In this document: positions 4,988-64,000 of the stretch, in pieces | Numbering within the stretch: position 1 is the stretch's first letter | Layout of the letters: each line of letters begins with the position of its first letter | Virus record (IMG/VR): IMGVR_UViG_3300013105_000843 | Location: 65,557 to 129,556 of that record | DNA from: a virus | Taxonomy: Duplodnaviria > Caudoviricetes | Reading direction: 5' to 3' (one strand) | DNA: 64,000 nucleotides | Program-made: the position numbers and the translations under genes | The notes under the pieces: model-generated | Told to the model about the DNA's origin: nothing | What the model saw: the letters and a program-made list of their open reading frames with translations, nothing else | Database searches by the model: none

Positions 4988-5689
4988 CTACCCGCCCAGT
5001 ATTTTGACAAGCAGCGCCGCGATACCGCCCATCGCGAGCGCCGGCCCAAACGCCAACGGCTCGCAGGTGTCGCGACCGCGAAGGCGAAGCGTCACGATGA
5101 CCGCCATCTGCAGCGAGCAGCCCACTGCCAGCACAACCGGTAGCGCGAACACGCCTAGCCACGCGCCGAGCGCGGCCAGCAATTTGAAGTCGCCGTAACC
5201 GAGCCCTTCCAGCCCCGTGGCCAGCCGCCAGCCCCAGTACAGGCTCCACAGCACGAGGTAGCCCACGACCGCGCCTTCCACCGCTTCCGGCAAGGGCGCG
5301 AGCACCCCGCACAGATTCACCAGCAGACCCGCCCAGATGAGCGGCAGGGTCAGGTCGTCCGGCAGCAGCCGCAAATTCAGGTCGGTCAGGGCGAGCCCCG
5401 CCAGCACGAGCACCAGGCCGCACGCGGCGAACCCCGCAGCCGTCGTGCCCATCAGCACGGGCATCGAGAGCGCAAGCACTGCGCCGGGCACCAGCACCCG
5501 GGGCCAGCGTCGGAACGCGCCGCGCGCGCAATCCCCGCACCAGCACACCCATGGCGGGTGGCCGGAATCCAGGCCGGCGCCGCACAGCGAGCAGACTTCT
5601 CCCTCCGGCGCGGGCGCGGCCCGGGCGGCCGCTGGATGGTCGGGCTCGGGCAGAGTATTCAGGTCGGTCATCAGCGCAACGGTTGGCAT
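4988..5689 (-). CDS. pilD: Prepilin peptidase (A24, PilD-like) with shortened N-terminal domain
   Basis: CxxC...CxxC, TDLNLRLLPD, GLGYGDFKLLAALGAWLG and FGP motifs; multiple TM helices. Confidence 0.9.
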   Translation of the reverse strand: MPTVALMTDLNTLPEPDHPAAARAAPAPEGEVCSLCGAGLDSGHPPWVCWCGDCARGAFRRWPRVLVPGAVLALSMPVLMGTTAAGFAACGLVLVLAGLALTDLNLRLLPDDLTLPLIWAGLLVNLCGVLAPLPEAVEGAVVGYLVLWSLYWGWRLATGLEGLGYGDFKLLAALGAWLGVFALPVVLAVGCSLQMAVIVTLRLRGRDTCEPLAFGPALAMGGIAALLVKILGG

Positions 5690-48026: not shown

Positions 48027-48836
48027 TCATACGAGCCGGTTCGGCTGTCGCCATTCCCAGAACCGCGGCGTGTTCCGGCGCTTCGTAGCGGGGGCGTCCT
48101 CGCGCTGCAGCTGCTCGAGATACGCGCGGCACAGCGCGTCGTCCTCGAGGTACTCGGTCATCCCCGCCGCCCAGCGCGCGTGAATCCAGTCGCGCAGTGC
48201 GAACCACACCGACCGCGCCACGTCGACCACCAGGTCCCCCAGCAGATAGGTCACCAGCGTCAGGGGCCACAGCACGACGTTCGAGACAAAGAAGCGCTTT
48301 TGCTGCAGCGGACGCAGCGGGAAGTCGCCGCGGTAGAGCATCTGAGCGCGGACTGCGTTGAGGACCTCCTGAAAGCGGCGACGCTGGGCATCGGTCAGCC
48401 CGTCCAGCGAGTCGACCCCCTCTTCGCGCAGCCAGAGGTCGCGCTCCATCACGTAGCGCTGGCCCAGTCGCCGGGCGTAGAGCCAGAAATAGGCAATGGC
48501 CCACACCACGCCGATGGCGCCATAGGCGGCCAGGAGCGCGGGCGCAGCGATGCTCTCGAGCAGGACCCGTTGCGCGCTCAGCTGCGCGTGCACCGCCGGC
48601 CAGAACGTCGGTGCGTTGAACTGCGCGGCACCCGGCGTCGCCATGTACGCCGGGAGAAACCATAGCGCTGCCATTACCCACAAGAGCAGGCAGGGCGTCA
48701 ACCTCTCCAGCTCCCCGCTGTCGGTCTCACAGCCGAGGAGGCGCCAGTGCCGGTCCGGCAGGAACAGCGCCACCAGTAGCGCGAACAGGATGACCGCCGG
48801 CCACAGCGGAATCATGATGTTGAAGATAGAGTTCAT
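48027..48836 (-). CDS. Membrane protein (paralog of 50541-51095)
   Basis: TM helices; AY.AIG..WA and NV..WP motifs. Confidence 0.7.
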   Translation of the reverse strand: MNSIFNIMIPLWPAVILFALLVALFLPDRHWRLLGCETDSGELERLTPCLLLWVMAALWFLPAYMATPGAAQFNAPTFWPAVHAQLSAQRVLLESIAAPALLAAYGAIGVVWAIAYFWLYARRLGQRYVMERDLWLREEGVDSLDGLTDAQRRRFQEVLNAVRAQMLYRGDFPLRPLQQKRFFVSNVVLWPLTLVTYLLGDLVVDVARSVWFALRDWIHARWAAGMTEYLEDDALCRAYLEQLQREDAPATKRRNTPRFWEWRQPNRLV

Positions 48837-50242
48837 TCGATTACGCGGGAATCCCCGGGCATCGACCCGTGGAGGGATAGCGCGCCGTGTGAAACACGAC
48901 CTTCTCCCGCTTCTCCTTTTTGTGAAGCTATCCTTGCGTATCCGTAGCCGTCGCTACGCTGAACCAGCCGGCAGTAGCGATGTGCAACGCCCTGTATGAC
49001 GGTGCCGCCCTGCTGGATGTTAAAGTTGCCCGCCGCGCGCACCGCCACGCGTCCCACGTGTGCGCCCGCCCTCTTGCCGCTTGGTACGTCGGCGCGCACC
49101 AGGTCGCCCGTCTGGAAGCCGTGCACCCGCTTATCGCGGGTCAGGTATCCGCGCGGGAAACCATACATGTCGAGCCGCGTACGCTGATAGCTACCGCGCC
49201 CTGTGCACTTCACTGACAGTGTTGGCTTTCGCCAGCCCGTCAGAGCCGCCAGCTCACCGACACAGGTCGCATCGAGCGCGTGGGTTTTCGGCACACCAAG
49301 CGTGACCCGGTTGAATTTTGTGCGGCCGCCGGATGCGAGTTCCACTGGGAGGCCGGTTGCCTTGAGCATATGAGCCAAGGCCCAGCGCGTAGCATTGACT
49401 GCTGCCGCGTCCTTCAATGGGCGCTTAGCGTGCGCCAGAATGGCCGCAAGCCGCTTCGGCGCCTTCGCGAGGAACAGCTCCACCGGCTGCGCGCCCTTGG
49501 CCTGGTTGCACGGTTCGCACGCAAGTGTCAGGTTGGACACCCGGTTCGAGCCGCCGCGCGCCCGGGCCACGATATGTTCCACCTGGAGCGGCACCTTCGT
49601 CGCGTCGCAGTACGCGCACTGCCGCCCCCACTTCTCGAGCAGGTACTCACGGACTTCGTAGCCCGCCAGCGTACCTTGCTGGTACTCGACGCCGCTGATG
49701 TCCGGATTCTCGAGCGCCTGCATGTCGAATCGCACCAGTTCACTTGACAGTGCTGTCACTGGCGCCCAGCGCAGGAGGCGCGTCACCCACGCCATCGTTG
49801 TGTGGATTCGATGCGCCAAGGACGGCGCCAGCCAGCCTGCCGGCCGGGTGCGATTCAGGAAGCGTGACGCGCGATAGCGCATTTTCCCGCGCCGCCGCCG
49901 ACGCATAGCTCGGCGCGCGACGAGCGCCTCGCTAATTTGGCGCCCACGGTGAACCAGTTCGAACAGGTTGAGTACCGCCGCGCCAGGTTGCAGCTCGCCG
50001 GTCGAGTTGTCCAGCACTTCGGTGTCACGCACAAGCGCGACTCCGGTGGTCTTGCTCCCGGGGTCGAGCTTGAGACGCACCGGCTGAAAACAGCAGGAGG
50101 TGGTGTCACGGTCGATGAGCCGGATGACGAATGGCACCACGCGATGCACGCGCGCGCGACCCCGCGCGAGCAACAGCCTCGCGCGTTTCTCGCTGCACGG
50201 CATCAACGCCTTACCTTTCCTGTCCAGCACGAAAACGGCCAC
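48833..50242 (-). CDS. iscB: RNA-guided endonuclease IscB
   Basis: LMPC (PLMP domain), DPGSKTTG (RuvC-I), Arg-rich bridge helix, CAYC..EHI..GGSN..NL..AC..CN (HNH), HALDA (RuvC-III). Confidence 0.95.
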   Translation of the reverse strand: MAVFVLDRKGKALMPCSEKRARLLLARGRARVHRVVPFVIRLIDRDTTSCCFQPVRLKLDPGSKTTGVALVRDTEVLDNSTGELQPGAAVLNLFELVHRGRQISEALVARRAMRRRRRGKMRYRASRFLNRTRPAGWLAPSLAHRIHTTMAWVTRLLRWAPVTALSSELVRFDMQALENPDISGVEYQQGTLAGYEVREYLLEKWGRQCAYCDATKVPLQVEHIVARARGGSNRVSNLTLACEPCNQAKGAQPVELFLAKAPKRLAAILAHAKRPLKDAAAVNATRWALAHMLKATGLPVELASGGRTKFNRVTLGVPKTHALDATCVGELAALTGWRKPTLSVKCTGRGSYQRTRLDMYGFPRGYLTRDKRVHGFQTGDLVRADVPSGKRAGAHVGRVAVRAAGNFNIQQGGTVIQGVAHRYCRLVQRSDGYGYARIASQKGEAGEGRVSHGALSLHGSMPGDSRVIE

Positions 50243-53354: not shown

Positions 53355-54249
53355 CCCCGCGCTCCTGTGCCTGGAATCCGCCAAGTTCGTTGACGAGGTC
53401 CGCTACCAGGGCGGCCAGCTCACCGCTCATCGCCCGGAAGGTCGCCTCGAACACGGCATCCGCGTCGTCGCCGATGTCCTTCAGGTCTTCCTTCACGACC
53501 TCGAGGAACTTGATGCGCTTGAGCTGGAATTTGTCGGTGAGCACGAAGCTGATGCGGTCGCGCCACGTGAGCGCGACGCTCGTCGCCTGCAGGCCCGCCT
53601 CGATGTGCTTGCGGACTTCCTCTGCGGTCAGGTCCGCGCGTCGGATGGTGACCTTCGCCCCACCCTTTTCCGGGTCTTCCAGCGTGCAGTCCGCGTCGAG
53701 CGTGAAATCGCCCGGCGCCTCGCCGGCGGCCAGCCAGTTCGTCATCGCCGCACCCGCCGACTTGTTCGTGCGCAGCAGCGCCACCGGGAACGGCGGCAGT
53801 GCCTCGCGCAGGGCCGAGAGAAGCGTCTCGCCCTTGCTCGCCGAGGACGAGTCGACGAACACATACTGGTCGTCCAGCCAGGCCGTCGTGAAGCTCTCCT
53901 TGGTCATCGCCTTGGCGAGCAACTCGTCGGTCACTTCCGCCTTGAGCTGCTTCTGCTCCTTACGCCCGACCTTGCGGCCTTCACGGCGCGCGATGTCGGC
54001 GACCTTCGCCTTCAGCGCCGCCTTGATGACAGGCGCCGGCAGCACCTTGTCCTCGCGCTGCAGCTTCACGATACGGAAGCCGCCGAACACGGGCGCAGCT
54101 TCTTCACGAAACGGCGCGGGCGGCACCCAGCCCTGCGTGAACCACTCGAGCGCACCCGGCTTGACCGGCTTGCGACGTGCGAGCTGCGCCTCGAGGTCGG
54201 ACAGCGATTCACCGCCGCGGCGATAAACGAGAATATTCTTGGCCCACAT
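53347..54249 (-). CDS. rdgC: Recombination-associated protein RdgC
   Basis: MW.KN...YR, GWVPP, EDKVLP..VI, VD.SS..K.E, ISFVL...LKRIKF, LGG. Confidence 0.92.
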   Translation of the reverse strand: MWAKNILVYRRGGESLSDLEAQLARRKPVKPGALEWFTQGWVPPAPFREEAAPVFGGFRIVKLQREDKVLPAPVIKAALKAKVADIARREGRKVGRKEQKQLKAEVTDELLAKAMTKESFTTAWLDDQYVFVDSSSASKGETLLSALREALPPFPVALLRTNKSAGAAMTNWLAAGEAPGDFTLDADCTLEDPEKGGAKVTIRRADLTAEEVRKHIEAGLQATSVALTWRDRISFVLTDKFQLKRIKFLEVVKEDLKDIGDDADAVFEATFRAMSGELAALVADLVNELGGFQAQERGDE

Positions 54250-54259
54250 GGGAGCTTCC

Positions 54260-54526
54260 TTACGGATGGTTGTGGATGAGCACACCTGCGGCCTGCGGCC
54301 GGACCGATGTGCGATTGCGTGGTTTGCGTGGCAGCAGCGCGAAGACGAAGGGCTGGCTGATGCTGGACATCAGCAGGAAGCCGATGACCTCGCCGGACAG
54401 CTGCGGTGCGAACAGCACGTCCCCCACGCAGACGAGCGTGGCGAGCAGCCAGGTGGCCAGCGCCGCCTTCAGCGCGAACCACACTGCAGCGCGGCCCCCG
54501 ATTCGAATGTGATGCGACTTAGTCAT
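54260..54526 (-). CDS. Small membrane protein
   Basis: Two TM helices, overlaps the upstream gene. Confidence 0.5.
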   Translation of the reverse strand: MTKSHHIRIGGRAAVWFALKAALATWLLATLVCVGDVLFAPQLSGEVIGFLLMSSISQPFVFALLPRKPRNRTSVRPQAAGVLIHNHP

Positions 54527-54950
54527 GGGTTTTCCTCTGAAACAGCCCGCCCTCGGCAGGCGCAAGAATGACGACCTCACCCTCTTTCAACCGACCCACG
54601 CCGGTTGCGGTCAGACCCACCGTCCCGTGCGTGAGCTGGCCGTCGTCGGTAAAGCAGGTGGCACGCGTTACCGTCACGCGCCACGGGGACGCGCGCCCGA
54701 AACTGAGGGACGACGTCAGCCGGTCGAGAAGTCCGGCATCCTCGCGCGCCGGGCGCATGGTGCCGATGTAGACGCAGGCGGAGTCGGACGCCCGTAGCGT
54801 TACGCGACGCTCCGCATGCGCCCTGTTCTCCTGGACAGCCCGGACATGCGTCCAGACCGAGGTCGACTGCCAGAAGTGGGTGTTCGTCATGACGAAGAAC
54901 AGCAGTGCCAGGCAACCAACGAAATAAAGCGTGTTCCGGTTCATCGCCAC
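54519..54950 (-). CDS. Hypothetical membrane-anchored protein
   Basis: N-terminal TM helix. Confidence 0.55.
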   Translation of the reverse strand: MAMNRNTLYFVGCLALLFFVMTNTHFWQSTSVWTHVRAVQENRAHAERRVTLRASDSACVYIGTMRPAREDAGLLDRLTSSLSFGRASPWRVTVTRATCFTDDGQLTHGTVGLTATGVGRLKEGEVVILAPAEGGLFQRKTHD

Positions 54951-54953
54951 GCG

Positions 54954-55226
54954 TTACATGAAATGCCGGGCGATAAAGCCCACCAGCAACAGAAACAGCG
55001 GCTGCAGGGTGGTGAAAATGAAGGCTTTAACGAGGTCATCCTGGCCTTCGGTGTCGCGCGTCCCGACAAATACCGCGACGACGCACACCAGGCCAATCGC
55101 CCCTCCGGTACCAATCGGCGGCGCCCCGAGCGGCACCACGAACCACTGCCACATTAGCGAACCAACCCAGCCGTTCAACACAAGCATCAGTGGCGCGACC
55201 ATCAGCGCGAAAATGAGCTTTCTCAT
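54954..55226 (-). CDS. Small membrane protein
   Basis: Three hydrophobic helices, W.WFVVP.G motif. Confidence 0.6.
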   Translation of the reverse strand: MRKLIFALMVAPLMLVLNGWVGSLMWQWFVVPLGAPPIGTGGAIGLVCVVAVFVGTRDTEGQDDLVKAFIFTTLQPLFLLLVGFIARHFM

Positions 55227-55286
55227 CGAATGTCCTGTTCGAGAAAGGTAAGCAGGCCTACCGGAGCAGGCCTGCTTACCAATCAG

Positions 55287-56651
55287 TTACGAGGCGAGCG
55301 ATGCTTCGTGAAACGAAACCCACGGCTTGTCCGCGCCCTTCCCCTTGGCGCCCAGGTGCACCGGCATCGAGAACGTGATGCCGTGGTCCGGATGCGAAAT
55401 CCACAGCGCCTGCTGCGGCTGCTCGAAGCCGAAGTTGTTCGCGTGGGCGTACTCGTTGTAGCCAATGAGCGAGCCGTTCATGATGATTCGGCGCATCTGC
55501 AGCAGCTGGTGGAAGTGCCCGATAACCAGGGTGTCGTACTCCTGATTGATTTGCGCATTGCGCGAGCGCTTCTTGTGGTCGCCACGGGTAATCGGGCCGA
55601 GCGGGCCAATCATGCCGTCGCCGCCGCGGAACTGGTTGCCGTGCGTGAACAGGTAGCGGTAGCCGTACACCGACACCAGCGCGTCCGGGCCGTCCGGGAT
55701 GAAGAAGACAACGTCCGGGTCGTCCTGGAAGTGGCGGTCCAGGCACTGGTAAATCAGCCAGTCGAACGAATTGAAGTTCGATTCCTTCGCGCGCATCTTC
55801 TTGTGCATGCGGCCATGGTTGCCGGCGACACACGGCAGGAACACTCGGCCAAACACGGCTTTCAGGCGCTTGATGGCGACGATGAGATGGTCGACGAGGT
55901 CGAGCACCACCGTCATGATGGGCTCTTCGTTGGTCTCGCTCAGTTCCTCGTGGATATTGCCCGACACCATGTCGCCGCCGAGCGCGAACACGATGCCCGG
56001 ATAGTCCGGCTTGACCATGTGGCGGGTCAGGAGGTTGATGGTGCGCTCGATGAGCTTGTTCAGGCGCTCGCGCGCGATGGTGAGGTTGTACTCGTTCACC
56101 CCGCCGATTTCGGAGGGCTTCACGACTTCCCCCCAGTGCCAGTCCGAACCGAAGAGAATCGGCACGCCGGTCGTGGTAGCACCCGCTGCGGCCGAACGTT
56201 CAATCCAGGCGGGGGTGGTCGGCTTCGCGTGCGCGATTTCGAAAATCTGCCGGCGAATCTGCTCTTCATTGAGAGCGGACTCGGCGAGCGTTTCGGCCTG
56301 CTTGCGCAGGCGACGATTCTCGTCCTGCAACAGCTTCAATGCCATCGCCATGCGGTCGCCGTTGGTTACCGCATCAGCGAGGCTCGCGCGCGTGGCCGTG
56401 GCGGTGGCGCCGGCCGGCGACGTGCGGGAGACCCCCGACGTACGCGACAGCGACGCGCGGGCCGCTACAGCCGCCCCGCCACCGTGAGGACGCAGCAGTT
56501 TCTCGACGGCATCGGTCCCCAGGATATTGCGGGCCTGCCCGAGCCGATAGGACACCGCACTTTGCGCTACTCCCAGCTCACGGGCGGCCGCACGCTGGTT
56601 GCCAGCCGCGGCAAGACGCCGGACGAACTGCTTCGCCTCTGTCTTATTCAT
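55287..56651 (-). CDS. HTH / coiled-coil / calcineurin-like metallophosphoesterase
   Basis: NQRAAARELGVAQSAVSYRL (HTH); SDWH, GGD, GNHG, THG, GHFH. Confidence 0.85.
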   Translation of the reverse strand: MNKTEAKQFVRRLAAAGNQRAAARELGVAQSAVSYRLGQARNILGTDAVEKLLRPHGGGAAVAARASLSRTSGVSRTSPAGATATATRASLADAVTNGDRMAMALKLLQDENRRLRKQAETLAESALNEEQIRRQIFEIAHAKPTTPAWIERSAAAGATTTGVPILFGSDWHWGEVVKPSEIGGVNEYNLTIARERLNKLIERTINLLTRHMVKPDYPGIVFALGGDMVSGNIHEELSETNEEPIMTVVLDLVDHLIVAIKRLKAVFGRVFLPCVAGNHGRMHKKMRAKESNFNSFDWLIYQCLDRHFQDDPDVVFFIPDGPDALVSVYGYRYLFTHGNQFRGGDGMIGPLGPITRGDHKKRSRNAQINQEYDTLVIGHFHQLLQMRRIIMNGSLIGYNEYAHANNFGFEQPQQALWISHPDHGITFSMPVHLGAKGKGADKPWVSFHEASLAS

Positions 56652-56709
56652 ACGTACTCCAATATACGGGTGTTGAAAGACGGCCTTTCCGACCGTGCAT
56701 GACTGGGAC

Positions 56710-56737
56710 TGTATAACGTTAAATGCGCTATTGTCAA
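56710..56737 (-). promoter_or_regulatory. Sigma70-like promoter
   Basis: TTGACA-16-TATACA on the minus strand. Confidence 0.55.
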
Positions 56738-56870
56738 GCAACGGAATTGATAATTTTATGGCTCGGTCCTAATTGATTAACCGCTCGACGGCCAATCAAA
56801 TAGCGACGTGGCCCGCTGGAACGGGCCTCGGCTCATGCTGCAGAGGAAAAGACGCGGTGCCGACTGCCGC

Positions 56871-58211
56871 TTATCGCACGTACAGCTCGCGATAGGATGT
56901 CGTGTCCCAGTGGTACTGGTACGCGGTTTCGCTTGCGTTGAATGACGGACAGAGCTTCGGGTACCCCACGTTCGCCCCGCCGCAAGTCGGGCTAATCCCG
57001 CCGGCATCCCAGAGAGTCAGGTCCGCGGTTGTCGGGTCGGTCGACAATCCCCACCCGATTTCCGTCAGCCACATGCTTGTGCGCCCCGAGGCGCTCGCCA
57101 CACCGGCGTAGGTGGTGGAGACATTGCCCGAGCTGGCGGTGAAGAACGAAAAATGAATCCAGCTACCGTACAGCGACTGCCACGTCGAACCGCCATTTTT
57201 GAACAGCCCCTGGGTGAACGAGCTGTTCGAGAGCCCGTTCGGGAGCACCGGCCTCGCGCTGGGGTTGGCCGTGTAGGTGACAAGCGACAGGCCGGCGGTC
57301 ACTGACGACACGGGTACGTCGTGCCCGGACGTACCGTTGTCACCCGCAAAGATGAGACTCCAGCCCCCGGCATCGGTCGTCTGGTCGCAGTAGACCGGGT
57401 AGGTCGCCGCACCCGGACCACCAGGTTGCACGCGATAGATGCCGTCGCCAACGGCGTCGCGGTACACCTTCAGCCCGCTCGGATAGCGGTAGTCCTTGCA
57501 CGTCGTGCCGTAGCTGCCGTCCGCCCAGACCCGCTCGCCGGCGACGTTCTGCACGAGGCCGACCACGGCCGCCGAGCCCGTGAGCGGCTGCCAGTTGCCG
57601 ACCGTGCCGTCCGGGTTCAGATACACCGCGCCCGTCTGGTTGACCGCGCGAATCTCGCCCGCGCGCGGGCTGAGGATGCTGCCGAGCTGCGACTCGAGTT
57701 GCACCGTCGCGCCGTGATAGCTCACGGCCGAGAAGCCGCCGTAGAGCTGCGAGACGGTCACGCGCTGCGCCAGGTCGTCGTCCACGCGCACGCCGGCGAG
57801 CGCCTGCGCGCAGGTGGTCTGGAACACCTTGTCCGGCCCGGCGCTGATGACCGCATAGACCGGGTCGTTCGCCACACTGGGACTGCCCACGCAGTAGCCG
57901 AGCGGCGTTACGAAGGCATCCGCAGCGGGCGTGACGCCCGCCGGCAGGAAGCCGCCGCCAGCGGGCGCGCCGGTGCCAGACGTCACCGCCGGCGCCACGG
58001 GATTCGCTGCGGTGGTGCTCGTCAGGCCAGCGAGCTTCACCAAGGCCTTGTCGAGCCCCTCGCGGCTCTGCGCGATGCGCGCGCTGCGCATCTGCTGGAT
58101 GTTGTAGGCGGTCACCACACCGACGGTGCCCGCCAGCGCCCCGAGTACCATGAGGGCTACAACCAGCGCGCCGCCTTGCTGGCCGCGCGCGAACCCCGTT
58201 CGCATGTTCAT
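56871..58211 (-). CDS. Pilin-like adhesin 3 (PilX-like N-terminus plus fibrinogen-like domain)
   Basis: QQG|GALVV; SAG.D..FQT.C core; GDGIY.V.P...VYCDQTTDAGGWSLI. Confidence 0.8.
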   Translation of the reverse strand: MNMRTGFARGQQGGALVVALMVLGALAGTVGVVTAYNIQQMRSARIAQSREGLDKALVKLAGLTSTTAANPVAPAVTSGTGAPAGGGFLPAGVTPAADAFVTPLGYCVGSPSVANDPVYAVISAGPDKVFQTTCAQALAGVRVDDDLAQRVTVSQLYGGFSAVSYHGATVQLESQLGSILSPRAGEIRAVNQTGAVYLNPDGTVGNWQPLTGSAAVVGLVQNVAGERVWADGSYGTTCKDYRYPSGLKVYRDAVGDGIYRVQPGGPGAATYPVYCDQTTDAGGWSLIFAGDNGTSGHDVPVSSVTAGLSLVTYTANPSARPVLPNGLSNSSFTQGLFKNGGSTWQSLYGSWIHFSFFTASSGNVSTTYAGVASASGRTSMWLTEIGWGLSTDPTTADLTLWDAGGISPTCGGANVGYPKLCPSFNASETAYQYHWDTTSYRELYVR

Positions 58212-58213
58212 GG

Positions 58214-60214
58214 TCAACGCACCCACAGGTTGAAGTTGCAGCCCGTCGCGCTGGCATAGCAGAACCCGTTGGGCACATCCGCACCGAGCACCCACGCATA
58301 GCCGTAGTTGGCCATGTTCGTGTTGAAATACAGCTGCCCGTCGACAATGTCGCCATCGGCCAAGCCGTTCCCCGCGTAAGGCAGATAGTCAGCGGAAGGG
58401 GATTGCGCGCCCGTCCAGCCGGTCGTGGCGTAGGAGGTCGCCGTGTCGCCGGAGACCATCGACGCGTGCGCATAGGGCGTGGCTTTCCAGTAGCGCGTTT
58501 GCTGGTAGGTTCCGTCCGAGGTCGCCCGGTAGATGCCCGCTCCGCCCGCGCGCAACAGGTTGATGGTGGTGTCATCGAGCTTGAACGCAGAGGCGCCATA
58601 CGGGGCGTTGCGGCTCGTCGCGAGCCCCGGATTGATGGCGGAGGTCACGTTCCAGGCCGATGGCGACATCCCCGAGCCACCCGCGCCACGCATGACGAGT
58701 TCCCAGCCGCCCCCGTTGCTCGACATGTCGCACCAGACCTGCAGCGGCGAAGCCGCACCCGGCGGGTTGACAAGATACACCCCGTCGGCCATCGCGCCCT
58801 GGTTGCGGTAGCTCGTGCATGCGGAAAACGGAGCCGCCGCCATCGGCTGCCAGGCGCCGCTGCGCTGAACGAAGCCGGCCCCTTCGGTGAGCTGCTCTCC
58901 CAGGCTGCGCCCCGTTTGCCAGAGCCGGAATGCTTCGCTGTCCGACAGCGCTCGATTCCAGACAGCCATGTCGTCGAGGAACAGATTGGCCATGTACCAG
59001 CTGGTATTGCCCGTTCCGCCGAGGTTGGCTGTGCTGCTCCAGGCCCGGTTTGCGGGTAGCGGCTGGCTTCCCGCGAGCGTCAGCGTTTGCCGCACACCGT
59101 CGATGTAGATGCGCTCGTCCGGCGCAAAGTTGTCGCCCGCGTCCTTGCGCGTGTCCATCACGAACACGTACAGGTGCTTGCCTGGCAACGGTGTGACACC
59201 TCGCACCTCGCCCTGATAGGTGTTAAACCCAATCAGGTTGTAGTTCGCGTTGTACCAGATGTCGTAGGTGGCGAACGAAAACGGCATGACGAGGCCCGTC
59301 AGCGACGCACTGTCCAGCCACATTGCGATGGTGGCCTGTGAGGTGCCAAGCGCCGCCAGTTCAGGCAGCGGCAAAGAGGCAATGCCGGTTCCAACACGCG
59401 CCTGACCGAATACCCCCGGCGCGTAGCTCGTCGTCGAGAATTGGATGTCGTGCCCGGACACTGCGTCATGCGCGACGTTCCCGTTCATCTCATCCATGGA
59501 CCAATACGACACCAGGCCCTTCATGAGCGGCGCCCCGGAGATGCCCAGCGACTGCAGCGGCTGCCACTGGCCGGGCGTGCCGGTTGGATTCAGGTACACC
59601 GACGCGTGCCCCGTGCCGTCATCGAGCACCGGACGAATTTCGCCGGGCGTGATGTACTGCAGCTGGTTCAGCACCGCCAAGCTCGCCACCGGCTTGCCGT
59701 GGTCAATCGCCCCCGTACGCCCTTTCAGCAGCGAGGCGCTCGTGATGACGCGCACGATATCGTCACCGAGCGTCTGCCCGAGCAGCGCCGTCGCGCACGG
59801 CGTCTGGAAAACACCATCCTTGCCCGCCGAGACCAGCGCGGCCGCCGCATCGGAGACTGCTGCGCTCGAGGCGACGCAATAGCCGAGTGCATTGCCCCAC
59901 CCGTCCACCCGCGCTACGTTGGGCAGTACCGCCGGCAATTGCCCGCCGCCCGTCGGCGCGAACGCGGCGCTCTGGTATGCCGGCAGCACCGCCACGTTGC
60001 TGGTGGTGAAGGATGGCGCGGCCGTGAGTTGCGTGACAGCGGCCGACATTGCCGTTTCGGACATCGCGCGGGCGCGCGAGGAGGCGACGCTCAGCATCAT
60101 CGGCCGGATGACGGACGTCGCCATCGCCGTGGCCACCGCAATCGCGGCTACGGCTGCCAGGAGCAGCGGGACCGCCGCATAGCCGCGCTGTCGGTTCTTG
60201 AGGTTCATGTTCAT
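58214..60214 (-). CDS. Pilin-like adhesin 2 (pilin + LamG + fibrinogen-like)
   Basis: RQRG|YAAVP; GLVSYWSMDE...IYIDG...DDMAVWNRALS; ADGVYLVNP..WCDM...GGGWELV. Confidence 0.85.
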   Translation of the reverse strand: MNMNLKNRQRGYAAVPLLLAAVAAIAVATAMATSVIRPMMLSVASSRARAMSETAMSAAVTQLTAAPSFTTSNVAVLPAYQSAAFAPTGGGQLPAVLPNVARVDGWGNALGYCVASSAAVSDAAAALVSAGKDGVFQTPCATALLGQTLGDDIVRVITSASLLKGRTGAIDHGKPVASLAVLNQLQYITPGEIRPVLDDGTGHASVYLNPTGTPGQWQPLQSLGISGAPLMKGLVSYWSMDEMNGNVAHDAVSGHDIQFSTTSYAPGVFGQARVGTGIASLPLPELAALGTSQATIAMWLDSASLTGLVMPFSFATYDIWYNANYNLIGFNTYQGEVRGVTPLPGKHLYVFVMDTRKDAGDNFAPDERIYIDGVRQTLTLAGSQPLPANRAWSSTANLGGTGNTSWYMANLFLDDMAVWNRALSDSEAFRLWQTGRSLGEQLTEGAGFVQRSGAWQPMAAAPFSACTSYRNQGAMADGVYLVNPPGAASPLQVWCDMSSNGGGWELVMRGAGGSGMSPSAWNVTSAINPGLATSRNAPYGASAFKLDDTTINLLRAGGAGIYRATSDGTYQQTRYWKATPYAHASMVSGDTATSYATTGWTGAQSPSADYLPYAGNGLADGDIVDGQLYFNTNMANYGYAWVLGADVPNGFCYASATGCNFNLWVR

Positions 60215-62562
60215 CGCGCCCAGAGGAAAAGGGTGGCGGGCTGCCATGCGCCCTTGTTGCTGTTCATGAAGGTGCTGCCGTACTGGGTGCCGTATGCACC
60301 CAGCCCGCCACAGGAGTCGTGTGAGGCATCCCCACCGGAGCCCTGGGCATCCTGGTTGGCCGCCCAGCCCCACCGCGCACCACAGAAAAGCGTGCCATTA
60401 CCGGGGTACAGCTCCGCGAAATTGAAGCCGAACCGCGACGCCGTGATGGTGTTACCGTTGGGATAGGTGCTGGTGCGGACGTACCAGTTCATCGCCGTAC
60501 CAGGCACGCCATAGGCATCCGAATAGATGGTGCGGCTCGCATTGCTGAAGGCCGCGAGCGGCGTCGACGCCGAGCGGCTGACAAACTGCCGCGCAGTCTC
60601 ATTGGCAGCTTGCAGGCGGTATTGCGTGGCCTGCAGCGTCGAGAAGGCCTGCGACACCAGATTGCTGTCGCCGTAGTTCCAGTTCGCGTAGGTATCGTTC
60701 AGCGTGGTGCCGTTGGTCCAGTAGGCCGTGTCGCCCTGCAGCGTCGTGCCGTCCCCCGTCGCCTGCTTCATCACGAGGGTCCAGCCCCCGCCGTCCGAGG
60801 TCATATCGCAATACGCCTCGAATGGCGCGTTGCCGGTCGGATTGAGCAGATACACGTCGTCAACGCGCGCACCGCCCTGGTAATAGGCGTTGCAGCTTGC
60901 GAGGCCCTTGCCGGCAGCATCGTGCCAGCGCGGATTGCCTTGCGCATCGGTGTCCCGGATAAAACCGGCCTGCGCCGACAACATCCCCTGAAACCGGCGG
61001 CCCGAGTTGTAGATGACGGAGACCTCCCCGTCCGACAGCGCGCGCTTCCAGACCGCGACTTCCTGGAAGAACGTGTTGGAAAGCTGATAGTTGGTGCTGT
61101 AGCTCCACCCGCCGATATTCAGGTTCGTCTGCCAGACACGGTAGGCGGCCGAGGGCGTGCTACCTGCCTGCAGCGCCATCGGCTGCCGGATGCCATCGAC
61201 GTACACGCGCTCATCCTGCGCGAAGCTGCTCGTCGTCGACGGACGGCGGTCGAACACAAAGACAAAATGGTGGTAGCCCGTCAGTCCCGTGACACCTACA
61301 ACGTCGCTCTGCGCCGTGTTGAACCCGGCCATGACGTTGGAGCCCGATTGGTTCGTCCAGACATCCCACTCATTCCAGCCGAACAGCATCGCGTTGGCGG
61401 GTACAGTCGACAGGTTGACCCAGGCCGAGATGGTTACCTGGTTCGGGTTGTTGCCGACGATTTCGGGCAGCGCGACCGGGTTCGCGCCGGTGATGTTCTT
61501 GCCGATGCCCCACACCGCGCCGCCGCGCCCCGGCACTGACGATGGCGCGTTTGCAGGCACTGCGTTCAGGGTGGCGTTGTGGTTGCCCGTCATGTCGTAG
61601 GCCACAGAGCCAATCGGCTCGTCCATCGGCCAGAACGCGACGAGGTCAGTGTAGAACGAGCGCCCCGCCATATCGGAGGTCATATCGCAGTAGAGGCCGT
61701 ACGGCACGCCGGCAGGGTTCACCCAGTAGACGCCATCGCCGATGTCGCCGGTGTACGCGTAGCCCGCCCCGCCCTGCAGATAGCCCTGGCATGACGGCGA
61801 CATCGTGCCATCGGACCACTTGCGCATGCCGGACGCGTCGCGCACGACGTACTTGCCACCCGACGCACCGGCACCCGTCACGAGCTGCCAGTTGGCAGAG
61901 CCCTGCTGACCCGTCTGGTTCACGTACAGTTGTTTCGTCTCGAGCACGAGCCGCACCTCGCCGGGCACCGTCGGCACGACGGTGTTCAGGTCCGAGAGCA
62001 GCGTCAGCGGCGGCTTGTACGCATCCGTCTTGCCCTGCGCGCCCTGCGCACGCCATTCGGCGGCCGTCACCACGGTCAGCAGGTCGTCGCCGCGCCGGAC
62101 GCCGGCAAATGCGTCGCTGCAGCTCGTCTGGAACGTCTTGTCGTGGCCGGCGGAGAGGACGGCGAAAACTGGCGTGCTCCAGCCGCTCCATGCCGAGCCA
62201 GAGTAGTTGCAGAAGCCGAAGGAGCTGCCCCATGAGTCCGTCGAGCGGTTCGGCCCGATGCCCACCGGCAGGAGTGAGCCGCCCGACGGTGCCGCCCCGC
62301 CTGTCACATAGGTCAGGCTGCTGGGCAGGATAGGCCGGCCGGAGGCCTGCTCGTTGTAGCCCAACCCGATAGCCGAGTTCGCCAAGGTCGCCATCGCGCG
62401 CTTGGTCACCAGGTTCGCGCGCGAATCGCTGCCAAGCTTCGAGAGGGCGGAAATCTGCGTGAGCGCCACGGAGCTGGCGACCGCGACGGCCGCCATCATC
62501 AGCAGGAAGTAAGGAAGCACAGAGCCGCGCTGGGCGCGGCCTCGCAGGATTCGAAGTCGCAT
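60211..62562 (-). CDS. Pilin-like adhesin 1 (pilin + partial fibrinogen-like + LamG + fibrinogen-like)
   Basis: AQRG|SVLPY; LVAFWPMDE...VYVDG...EVAVWKRALS; YCDMTSDGGGWTLV. Confidence 0.85.
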   Translation of the reverse strand: MRLRILRGRAQRGSVLPYFLLMMAAVAVASSVALTQISALSKLGSDSRANLVTKRAMATLANSAIGLGYNEQASGRPILPSSLTYVTGGAAPSGGSLLPVGIGPNRSTDSWGSSFGFCNYSGSAWSGWSTPVFAVLSAGHDKTFQTSCSDAFAGVRRGDDLLTVVTAAEWRAQGAQGKTDAYKPPLTLLSDLNTVVPTVPGEVRLVLETKQLYVNQTGQQGSANWQLVTGAGASGGKYVVRDASGMRKWSDGTMSPSCQGYLQGGAGYAYTGDIGDGVYWVNPAGVPYGLYCDMTSDMAGRSFYTDLVAFWPMDEPIGSVAYDMTGNHNATLNAVPANAPSSVPGRGGAVWGIGKNITGANPVALPEIVGNNPNQVTISAWVNLSTVPANAMLFGWNEWDVWTNQSGSNVMAGFNTAQSDVVGVTGLTGYHHFVFVFDRRPSTTSSFAQDERVYVDGIRQPMALQAGSTPSAAYRVWQTNLNIGGWSYSTNYQLSNTFFQEVAVWKRALSDGEVSVIYNSGRRFQGMLSAQAGFIRDTDAQGNPRWHDAAGKGLASCNAYYQGGARVDDVYLLNPTGNAPFEAYCDMTSDGGGWTLVMKQATGDGTTLQGDTAYWTNGTTLNDTYANWNYGDSNLVSQAFSTLQATQYRLQAANETARQFVSRSASTPLAAFSNASRTIYSDAYGVPGTAMNWYVRTSTYPNGNTITASRFGFNFAELYPGNGTLFCGARWGWAANQDAQGSGGDASHDSCGGLGAYGTQYGSTFMNSNKGAWQPATLFLWAR

Positions 62563-62567
62563 GGCGG

Positions 62568-63107
62568 TCAGTTGCTCACGAGAAAGGTCAGCTGGTTGCT
62601 GGCCAGCGCGGCATCCGCGCCAAGCCGCTGTGCCGCGAAAGTCAGCGTGCGCGAATCGCCCGTGATGGTCAGCCGCGCGCTGGTGCCGTCGTTGGTGAAC
62701 GCCCAGCCGCTCGACATGAAGGCCGGTGCAACCGGCAGCGTCACGCCATCGGTGCCGACCCACAGGTTCTGACCGGTGCCCGGGCAGACGAGTGCGCTCA
62801 CGGCAGTCGCGGTCACCGCGGCCGGCAGCGCGGGCCGGTACGAGGTGCCGTTGACGCCATCCGGATAGTCCGAACCGCACAGCAGGATGCGCGCGCGGAT
62901 GAAGTTCGCCTGCGTTGCGACCTGCGCGGCAGCATTGGTGTAGGCCTGGTTGCGCAGTCCCGACGTGTCCGACTGCGCGACGAAAGCCGTGACCACGACC
63001 GCCAGGATGACGGCGACCATCAGCATCGGCAGGACGGCGAAGCCCCGCTGGCGCGTCGAACAGTTGCGGCGGCGCGCGCCGGCCTGAAGGGGTTGAATTC
63101 GGGACAT
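62568..63107 (-). CDS. Minor type IV pilin-like protein (Pro at +5)
   Basis: RQRG|FAVLP plus hydrophobic helix; Cys pair; GGAG RBS. Confidence 0.8.
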   Translation of the reverse strand: MSRIQPLQAGARRRNCSTRQRGFAVLPMLMVAVILAVVVTAFVAQSDTSGLRNQAYTNAAAQVATQANFIRARILLCGSDYPDGVNGTSYRPALPAAVTATAVSALVCPGTGQNLWVGTDGVTLPVAPAFMSSGWAFTNDGTSARLTITGDSRTLTFAAQRLGADAALASNQLTFLVSN

Positions 63108-63205
63108 CGAAAGCTCCGGTTGGCCTTACGCCCGTGAGCAATACGGGCGGAACGGCAATCGGACGGTATAGCGTTCACGCAGGCGGATGGCCGCCGCGCC
63201 GGCGC

Positions 63206-63242
63206 AAATAAAAACCCCCGCCAGGCGAACCTGACAGGGGGT
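63206..63242 (-). terminator. Terminator after the putative major pilin
   Basis: ACCCCCTGTCAGG-TTCG-CCTGGCGGGGGT-TTTTATTT. Confidence 0.8.
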
Positions 63243-63286
63243 GGCATAACCGCACCGGCGTGACACCGGTGCGCGAGCCGAAACGC

Positions 63287-64000
63287 TTACGATGCGTTGA
63301 CGACGTGGAAGTACACGTACTTGCCGTCGGAGGTCTGCACGCAGCCCGCCGGCCAGTTCGCCACCGCTGCCGTGCCCGACAGGTCCGGCGAGCCGGTCGA
63401 CACCGGGTTGCTCACCGTCGCGCCGCCAACGAAGGCCGATTCGGCCGACGAAACGGACGGGGGCGCCGTCGTCGAACCCGTTGCGTACAGCACGTCGTTG
63501 ATTTTGCTGCACACGCCGTTCTTGATGCCGGCAACCGTCACGACATAGTCGACGCCAGCCTGCGTGCCGATGCCATTACCCTTGAAGTTCTTGTTGTAGG
63601 CCCAGAACCCTTCGGTCGCGCCGAGGCCCGCTGCCGGGACCAGCGCGTTGCCTTGCGGAATCGGCTTGATGATGCCGACGTTCGGGTCGAACACACCCTG
63701 ACCCGTGGTCGTGTCGTACGTGATGCTGGTCGGCGTCACGCCGTTCGTCACGAGGTTCGTGAACGTCTGCTCCTGGGCCTTGCCCTGGTCGATGATGGAC
63801 GACGCCATCACCTTGTTGTTGCCGTCCTGTGCGGCGCTCGTGTTCGAGCGGCTGGTGGCCGCCCACGCGACGAGCGCGCCGCCGATGATGACAGCGAGCA
63901 GCAGCAGCGGCAGGACCGCGAAGCCCTTCTGATTTCGCTGCGCGGCGGCAGCCTGCTCTGCCTTGCGGTGCACGAGGTTGCTGAGCTTGAAATTCTTCAT
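63287..64000 (-). CDS. Putative major type IVb-like pilin (long leader, Pro at +5)
   Basis: 27-aa leader ending QKG|FAVLP; hydrophobic helix; C-terminal Cys pair; own terminator; ATG lies at the window edge. Confidence 0.8.
   Translation of the reverse strand: MKNFKLSNLVHRKAEQAAAAQRNQKGFAVLPLLLLAVIIGGALVAWAATSRSNTSAAQDGNNKVMASSIIDQGKAQEQTFTNLVTNGVTPTSITYDTTTGQGVFDPNVGIIKPIPQGNALVPAAGLGATEGFWAYNKNFKGNGIGTQAGVDYVVTVAGIKNGVCSKINDVLYATGSTTAPPSVSSAESAFVGGATVSNPVSTGSPDLSGTAAVANWPAGCVQTSDGKYVYFHVVNAS

Follow-up and report, generated by a model that had tools for sequence, protein, structure and literature searches.

Six types of bacterial type IV filament (T4F) are listed in reviews, which also describe the glutamate at position 5 of the mature subunit (Glu5) as an absolutely conserved residue of bacterial type IV pili (T4P) (PMC10191384; PMC10710030). 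In the known systems, only tip-capping subunits lack this residue (PMC10191384). In TcpA, Glu5 provides the salt bridge and biogenesis depends critically on it; archaeal pilins do not conserve Glu5, and in the structure of the Tad pilus it makes no contact with a neighbour (PMC10710030). Among the polar residues of bacterial type IV pilins, Glu5 is regarded as the only constant one. Models of subunit docking, charge neutralisation and N-methylation invoke it, and the N_methyl/PilFind motif by which annotation pipelines find pilins is built on it. Here we describe five consecutive pilin-like genes (g1 to g5), all without Glu5, at the end of a 64,000-nucleotide stretch of DNA (hereafter the window), which is the final 64 kb of the 129,556-base IMG/VR 'provirus' record IMGVR_UViG_3300013105_000843. 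We consider it likely that these genes, on large mobile DNA from bacteria of the Burkholderia type, encode the subunits of a complete type IVb (T4b)-like filament machine, representing a large unannotated family of Pseudomonadota in which the N-terminal helix of the pilin carries no acidic residue.

All five open reading frames (ORFs) are present on the minus strand as the first-pass annotation of the window had described them. The probable major pilin, g1 (63287..64000, 237 aa), has a 26-residue leader with the Gly26/Phe27 junction in QKG↓FAVLP (the arrow marks the predicted cut) and a Cys164-Cys220 pair. It is followed by a conserved small minor pilin-like protein, g2 (62568..63107, 179 aa, RQRG↓FAVLP), and by three modular pilin-adhesins. 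In g3 (60211..62562, 783 aa, AQRG↓SVLPY) a pilin-like N-domain is joined to a LamG-like region and a fibrinogen-like GGGWT C-domain, in g4 (58214..60214, 666 aa, RQRG↓YAAVP) to a LamG and a fibrinogen-like domain, and in g5 (56871..58211, 446 aa, GQQG↓GALVV) to a fibrinogen-like domain. The translations also bear out Pro at +5 in three of them (g1, g2, g4) and one place earlier, at +4, in g3; in g5 the residue is Val. Each protein starts with a basic leader, a Gly and then an uncharged helix of about 22 residues, the pattern of a class III signal peptide, with neither Glu nor Asp near +5. Since the Gly is invariant among g1 relatives and the N-terminal pattern is kept by orthologues of all five genes in other genomes, we do not regard it as a chance resemblance. 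A terminator scan placed a strong intrinsic terminator after g1 at 63240-63215 (annotated as 63205..63240, minus strand; 11-bp stem with 8 GC pairs, TTTTTATTT, and a T-run), which presumably causes partial termination downstream of the major-subunit gene. A search with Pfam N_methyl (PF07963), which the first-pass annotation had proposed, and with the NCBIfam prepilin models gave zero matches among g1 to g5 at E≤1, and g1 and g2 fall in no family of Pfam, NCBIfam or PHROGs.

When g1 alone was used in a word-indexed protein search, just 8 close relatives were retrieved, and an exhaustive search with a profile hidden Markov model (HMM) was therefore needed. Against 1.84 billion representatives, the g1 profile found 516 full-length relatives at E≤1e-3, 194 of them at E≤1e-10, and the family profile gave 682 matches at E≤1e-8 in the word-indexed collection. 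All members are annotated 'hypothetical' and none has a Pfam domain; we attribute the missing annotation to the reliance of the pilin-finding motif on Glu5. N-terminal residues were counted in 264 sequences, namely 154 representatives from the exhaustive search and a second subgroup of 110. Asp or Glu occurs at +1 to +7 in none of the 264. Among the 154 representatives, position -1 is always Gly, -3 is Gln in 94 and +1 is Phe in about 65%; position +5 is held by Ala (48), Thr (23-24), Val (15-16), Pro, Leu and Ser (13 each), and also by Ile, Gly or Met. The second subgroup, which includes sequences from alphaproteobacterial metagenome-assembled genomes (MAGs), has a near-invariant G↓N(V/A)LFLILIAVALFAALSYAV N-terminus with Leu at +5. 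Across the family, mature residues 1 to 22-24 are essentially uncharged; then come a conserved Arg at +25 and a stretch rich in Ser, Thr and Asn.

The first-pass annotation had proposed a distinct filament class defined by Pro5. Its broader half holds, in that the absence of Glu5 is, as read from these alignments, a real and conserved property of a distinct filament family; its narrower half does not. Pro5 is fixed in the close Burkholderiaceae orthologues of g1 and recurs in a few other lineages, and the minority of representatives that carry it, together with the variation at +5 even among g2 orthologues (Pro, Val or Ala), rules it out as a class-defining residue. At the sequence level the family trait is instead a fully uncharged N-terminal segment of 22-24 residues. 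A different assembly chemistry, which had also been suggested, may follow from this. The smaller protein g2 shares this N-terminus, being homologous there to the g1 family (hhalign, probability 95%). Its 11 orthologues keep Cys77 and Cys108 invariant, and it has a weak match to the N-terminal part of GspH (18.3 bits against a cut-off of 80).

The window ends at position 64000, which is both the end of the record and exactly the ATG of g1, so the DNA upstream of g1 lies outside the IMG/VR record. This DNA can be read in a close relative, a contig of GCA_003853435.1 (L002) that is colinear with window positions 53387-64000 at 90.5% nucleotide identity and continues beyond g1. The ATPase, platform and secretin genes that the first-pass annotation had proposed to look for beyond 64000 are found there. 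Immediately in front of g1 to g5 stand, in order, a secretin (PF00263), an exported protein of 192 aa, the T2SSE ATPase, the T2SSF platform and two proteins of 280 and 150 aa. The secretin is of the lipoprotein type, with a lipobox-like ...LSGC at its start. The ATPase is PilB/GspE-like (PF00437, 274.7 bits), and the GspF/PilC-like platform, one chain of 404 aa, contains two T2SSF stretches (PF00482, 72 bits). The 280-aa protein has one mid-chain membrane helix and the 150-aa protein is N-terminally anchored; the former was likened to PilO2, GspL and PilMN, as a lead only.

Ten further loci were compared: two Cupriavidus plasmids (L004, L008), the conjugative plasmid of Rhodoferax ferrireducens T118 (L022), three metagenomic loci (L005-L007), two Burkholderiales loci (L017, L018) and two alphaproteobacterial MAG chromosomes (L020, L021). 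In the sequences themselves, the gene set, its synteny, the N-terminal pattern and the domain content recur. They preserve the arrangement (TcpQ)-secretin-x-ATPase-platform-~290 aa-~150 aa-pilin(s)-g2-like-large adhesin(s), TcpQ (PF10671) occurring in L005 only, and the operon is compact in all loci. A PilB/GspE-type ATPase and a GspF/PilC platform stand alongside the pilins in L002 and in 9 of the 10 further loci. A g2-like gene comes after the pilin in every locus examined, with an unrelated 155-aa ORF in between in L007. Every pilin-like ORF in the ten loci has the basic leader, the Gly and a hydrophobic stretch with no acidic residue and no Glu5. A motif scan for prepilins of the form G-x4-[ED]-hydrophobic found none in the family loci; the same scan, as a control, recovered BfpA, BfpI, BfpJ and BfpK (G↓LSLIE).

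Some loci have features of their own. The two alphaproteobacterial clusters are chromosomal and are flanked by genes for a response regulator and a hybrid histidine kinase; their secretin is followed by a 520-aa Ig-like (ASH) protein, and they lack a large adhesin. L017 (G005:C30:36000-55999) comprises a secretin, a pilin, a g2-like gene and a 2,384-aa adhesin; the only similar ATPases of that genome are encoded on different contigs, in one case about 2 kb away from that contig's PilD-type A24 gene. A PpiC-type peptidyl-prolyl isomerase gene lies between the 150-aa protein and the pilins in L006 (9195-9983) and L022 (10463-11287), and in the Rhodoferax locus sulfotransferase and APS kinase genes come after the adhesin. 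The Cupriavidus plasmid pTMH.W2_2 (L025; G001:C4, about 293.7 kb) carries a second, different GspE-like ATPase about 95 kb from its pilus cluster, with 331 bits to GspE, below the cut-off.

Is g1 itself a pilin, and would it build the filament? An AlphaFold2 (AF2) model made from an alignment of 112 sequences (pLDDT 90, pTM 0.80) has helices at 29-49 and 54-85 and then a beta-sheet head, and its predicted pilin fold is reflected in the structural matches. The top ones are PilA1 of C. difficile (Z 7.0), CofA of enterotoxigenic E. coli (ETEC) (Z 7.0 over 153 residues) and TcpA of V. cholerae (Z 6.0), and pilins or pseudopilins make up 10 of the 11 best VIA-align matches (Z 4.1-7.0). A Foldseek search of g1 against the PDB returned nothing at E≤0.001; its top rows were nonetheless TcpA and CofA. 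Among the 112 relatives, which reach down to about 25% identity, G26, C164 and C220 are the invariant columns and there are no others. From the alignment, the two Cys residues would fit a disulfide of the D-region type, and profile matches in the PDB place the family Gly on the prepilin Gly of Geobacter PilA-N. Because of the pilin-type model, the invariant Gly at -1 and Cys pair, its place at the head of the pilin block and a terminator of its own, g1 is very probably the major pilin, and the earlier proposal to this effect still has in g1 its best candidate.

These observations bear on a different explanation, namely that all five proteins are ordinary minor pilins and that a canonical Glu5 major pilin, encoded just upstream or by the host, builds the filament. 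The restriction of Glu5-less subunits to tip caps in known systems (PMC10191384) speaks for it, as do the end of the record at g1, which leaves its own upstream DNA beyond reach, and the T4aP genes (PilB, PilD) found in hosts. However, no G-x4-E prepilin ORF occurs upstream of g1 in L002, where the first-pass annotation had set such a gene beforehand as decisive against its reading, and no canonical Glu5 pilin was found upstream in L002 or in nine other family loci. The g1 family is also as conserved as the machinery, and its T4b-like predicted fold, Cys pair, leading position and terminator are those of a major rather than a minor subunit. We therefore give an outside major pilin very little credence.

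Processing would probably fall to an A24 prepilin peptidase. The sole Peptidase_A24 match in the 129.5-kb record is a 233-aa protein encoded at 4988..5689 on the minus strand, 57 kb from the pilins (PF01478, 74.6 bits against a cut-off of 26.5). It has both Asp motifs (LTDLN...LLPD and GYGDFK, the latter having first surfaced in a motif scan) and presumably serves the five-gene pilus. It also has an N-terminal CxxC...CxC..C cluster, no match to PF06750 and neighbouring genes unrelated to pili. Elsewhere, L021 has a short A24 gene, of 174 aa, adjacent to its cluster, and PilD-size host genes are found on other contigs in the Burkholderiales genomes whose clusters carry no peptidase. As the Gly is invariant and A24 peptidases are present, cleavage after the Gly appears likely from the sequences.

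The proteins could alternatively be unprocessed, signal-anchored lectins of the periplasm or surface, or belong to a short pseudopilus, similar to that of type II secretion systems (T2SS), that exports or presents adhesins. The undetected N_methyl motif, an operon without a peptidase, an ATPase that scores equally against GspE and PilB, and a cluster without a retraction ATPase would agree with this. Yet a plain signal anchor would not keep the Gly, the Q-x-G↓F consensus is what an A24 peptidase requires, and such peptidases are encoded on the element and beside the L021 cluster. The g1 protein is large (about 210 aa when mature), has a predicted disulfide and, in its model, is nearest to T4b pilins rather than pseudopilins; the type II secretion markers GspC/L/M and the GspG-K equivalogs had no NCBIfam or Pfam matches in the cluster, and the GspE, GspD and GspF models all score far under their cut-offs. 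We judge this explanation, in either form, to be unlikely.

The three large proteins point to what the filament might carry. Domain matches are seen in g3 (NCBIfam GGGWT_bact, 63.6 bits; Pfam Fibrinogen_C, 37.6 bits; Laminin_G_3 in its L002 orthologue), g4 (Fibrinogen_C, 30.3 bits; GGGWT_bact, 42.3 bits; Laminin_G_3, 25.2 bits, just under the cut-off) and g5 (GGGWT_bact, 38.5 bits). Their N-terminal ~230 residues align with the N-termini of adhesins from distant loci, sharing invariant Cys and a SAGxDKxFQT motif, and a profile of this N-domain matched only pilin N-termini in the PDB (E 0.04-0.6). The full-length AF2 model of g5, C-terminal lectin domain included, is poor (pLDDT 51), with residues 70-155 scoring 75-92 after a 53-residue helix. 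Residues 13-160, comprising this helix and the sheet, are predicted to have a pilin fold and match CofA (Z 6.2), EpsG (Z 5.6), S. sanguinis PilB (Z 5.6) and other pilins. g3 to g5 answer to the concept of modular pilins set out in PMC8179133 and PMC9934059. Residues 162-214 of the g5 model, a short and conserved stretch behind the pilin module (GExRxV...YxNxTGxxGxW), have weak matches to a phage tailspike neck and collagen trimerisation domains (Z 4.2-4.8), and the model hints that the adhesins might trimerise at the tip. The C-terminal modules vary by locus, from fibrinogen-related (FReD) and LamG domains here to DUF7483 or Peptidase_S74 elsewhere, and in Rhodoferax a 'tail fiber assembly protein' gene follows the adhesin.

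Such tail-fibre features, and the source of the record, raise the possibility that the cluster is prophage cargo serving phage biology, for example as receptor-binding proteins. The record is classed as a provirus, genes neighbouring the cluster match PHROG exonuclease, RdgC-like and HNH families, and adhesins of other loci carry Peptidase_S74, a phage tail-fibre chaperone domain. The HNH protein (48833-50242, minus strand) has 469 aa and matches phrog_2214 at E 1.8e-112. However, the IMG/VR 'provirus' boundary cuts the pilus operon in two; TerL_ATPase, the HK97-type capsid (Phage_capsid) and TraI_2 were not found across the 129.5-kb record; and g1 has no relatives in IMG/VR contigs or in the 50,697 phage genomes of INPHARED, its relatives sitting on plasmids and chromosomes. 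A role as phage cargo is hence very improbable, and the provirus label is doubtful at the pilus end of the record. The element could be a huge phage, a phage-plasmid or a megaplasmid island. Megablast of the neighbouring 17 kb retrieved no plasmid, and the neighbouring exonuclease gene was not found in the Cupriavidus genome; therefore, the pilus module appears to move between different backbones.

In species genomes the g1 family is rare. It was found in 5 of the 401 Burkholderiales genomes sampled, one of these matches (E 2.5e-6, positions 1-59 only) perhaps being a mere match of the N-terminal helix, and in 0 of 400 further Pseudomonadota genomes. PLSDB holds one plasmid with a g1 relative, that of Rhodoferax, and a related-locus search with a shallow g1 alignment found a single Cupriavidus plasmid. 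The literature yielded no match to the g1 family, either as bacterial pilins lacking Glu5 or under a new T4F name, and the accessible part of the supplementary text of Denise et al. 2019 does not mention the Rhodoferax plasmid.

Among described systems, the conjugative thin pili of R64/IncI (PilL-PilV), of IncI2-type plasmids (NZ_CP029996.1) and of PAPI-1 (PilS2/PilV2) are likewise encoded by a single operon on mobile DNA. The likeness to the IncI2-type locus extends to gene order, with (TcpQ), a lipoprotein secretin, small proteins, ATPase, platform, major pilin and, further on, an adhesin minor pilin with a variable C-terminus. Unlike these loci, the new cluster has no PilT-like ATPase or transglycosylase and, except in L021, no peptidase; its pilins have no detectable sequence similarity to theirs, and its adhesins diversify by paralogues and domain swaps rather than by a shufflon. 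The IncI2-type PilS and PilV have an Asp at +6, whereas the new family has no acidic residue. In the Salmonella plasmid locus (L036:11298-14113), the major pilin reads KRG↓IANITD and the PilV adhesin KKG↓VAQISD, which puts Asp at +6 if the cut is after Gly.

The toxin-coregulated pilus (TCP; TcpA/TcpB), CFA/III (CofA/CofB) and the bundle-forming pilus (BFP) are also close, since CofA and TcpA are among the three best structural matches of g1, the secretin resembles BfpB and TcpQ occurs in L005. BfpB is indeed the sole match of the secretin among solved structures. Two membrane proteins of the new cluster stand at the places of TcpR and TcpD, and the cluster includes a large tip-type minor pilin, as CofB and TcpB are (PMC10191384). 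The TCP, CFA/III and BFP operons, in contrast, contain their own peptidase, and BfpA/I/J/K keep the Glu5 that the new family lacks. Against solved structures, the family ATPase scores 200-228 bits to PilF, GspE and PilB and 64 bits to BfpD.

The lack of a conserved Glu5 is shared with archaeal type IV pili, and the short L021 peptidase is reminiscent of TadV of the Tad (T4c) system. The new system differs in having a secretin, an ATPase of the PilB/GspE type (TadA model, 36.6 bits), a single two-domain platform in place of a split TadB/TadC one, and pilins of about 210 aa in place of Flp-size subunits. PilB and PilC of Streptococcus sanguinis similarly fuse a pilin module to an adhesive or lectin module, and PilB (7b7p) is the structure matched by the g5 N-domain at Z 5.6; here, however, the host is a diderm, the lectins are fibrinogen-like GGGWT and LamG modules, and there are three tandem paralogues, none with Glu5. 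With the MSHA pilus the cluster shares an ATPase of the PilB/GspE/MshE kind and MshL as the best NCBIfam model for its secretin, but the latter scores 110.9 bits, far under the cut-off of 250.2, MshI/J/K/M/N-type genes are not present and the pilins are unrelated. We file the system in the T4F superfamily, with a T4b-like architecture.

Several points weigh against a complete T4b-like machine. The machinery genes are outside the IMG/VR record and are taken from the 90%-identical relative L002, and in L017 the secretin, pilins and adhesin are not accompanied by a cognate ATPase or platform within 10 kb. The g1 Z scores of 6-7 are middling on the tool's own calibration. In an ATPase tree of 21 sequences, which did not include TcpT, CofH or MshE references, the new ATPases fall outside both the GspE/PilB and the PilQ/BfpD groups on an unresolved backbone, and approximately unbiased (AU) tests reject none of three groupings (p 0.31, 0.14 and 0.28). 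The peptidase gene is outside the operon except in L021, and no A24 peptidase was found on the Rhodoferax plasmid or the Cupriavidus plasmid contig. The filament and its cleavage site are predicted from genes and models. A link with conjugation, in addition, has against it the chromosomal alphaproteobacterial versions flanked by two-component regulators and without a large adhesin.

Taking the locus as such a machine, we can propose how it would work. Prepilins would enter the inner membrane, and an A24 peptidase, be it the one encoded by the element (4988-5689) or the host PilD, would cleave them behind the invariant Gly. The ATPase, the platform and the two membrane proteins would then polymerise g1 into a pilus that exits via the secretin. 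As with archaeal type IV pili, its core may be held together purely by hydrophobic packing, here of the uncharged segment of 22-24 residues, with no salt bridge between Glu5 and the N-terminal amine. g2 and one or more of g3 to g5 would prime and cap the filament, whose tip may display the LamG and fibrinogen-like lectin modules for binding to surface glycans.

Judged from genomic context, namely relatives located on plasmids that are conjugative or very large and tip modules exchanged from locus to locus, the most probable role is element-encoded attachment from cell to cell or cell to surface. By analogy with the thin pili of R64 or PAPI-1, it may include the stabilisation of mating pairs. 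More tentatively, these systems might constitute a seventh bacterial T4F lineage with no acidic N-terminus, spread on plasmids and mobile DNA as well as some alphaproteobacterial chromosomes, in which exchangeable lectin tips resembling phage receptor-binding proteins would choose the partner cell or surface.

To conclude, a diverse natural family that keeps the secretin, the ATPase and the platform yet lacks Glu5 in every subunit would offer a direct test of what this residue is for. Adhesive pili of mobile elements with swappable lectin tips may in turn matter to the way in which Burkholderia, Cupriavidus and Ralstonia transfer plasmids and attach to hosts.

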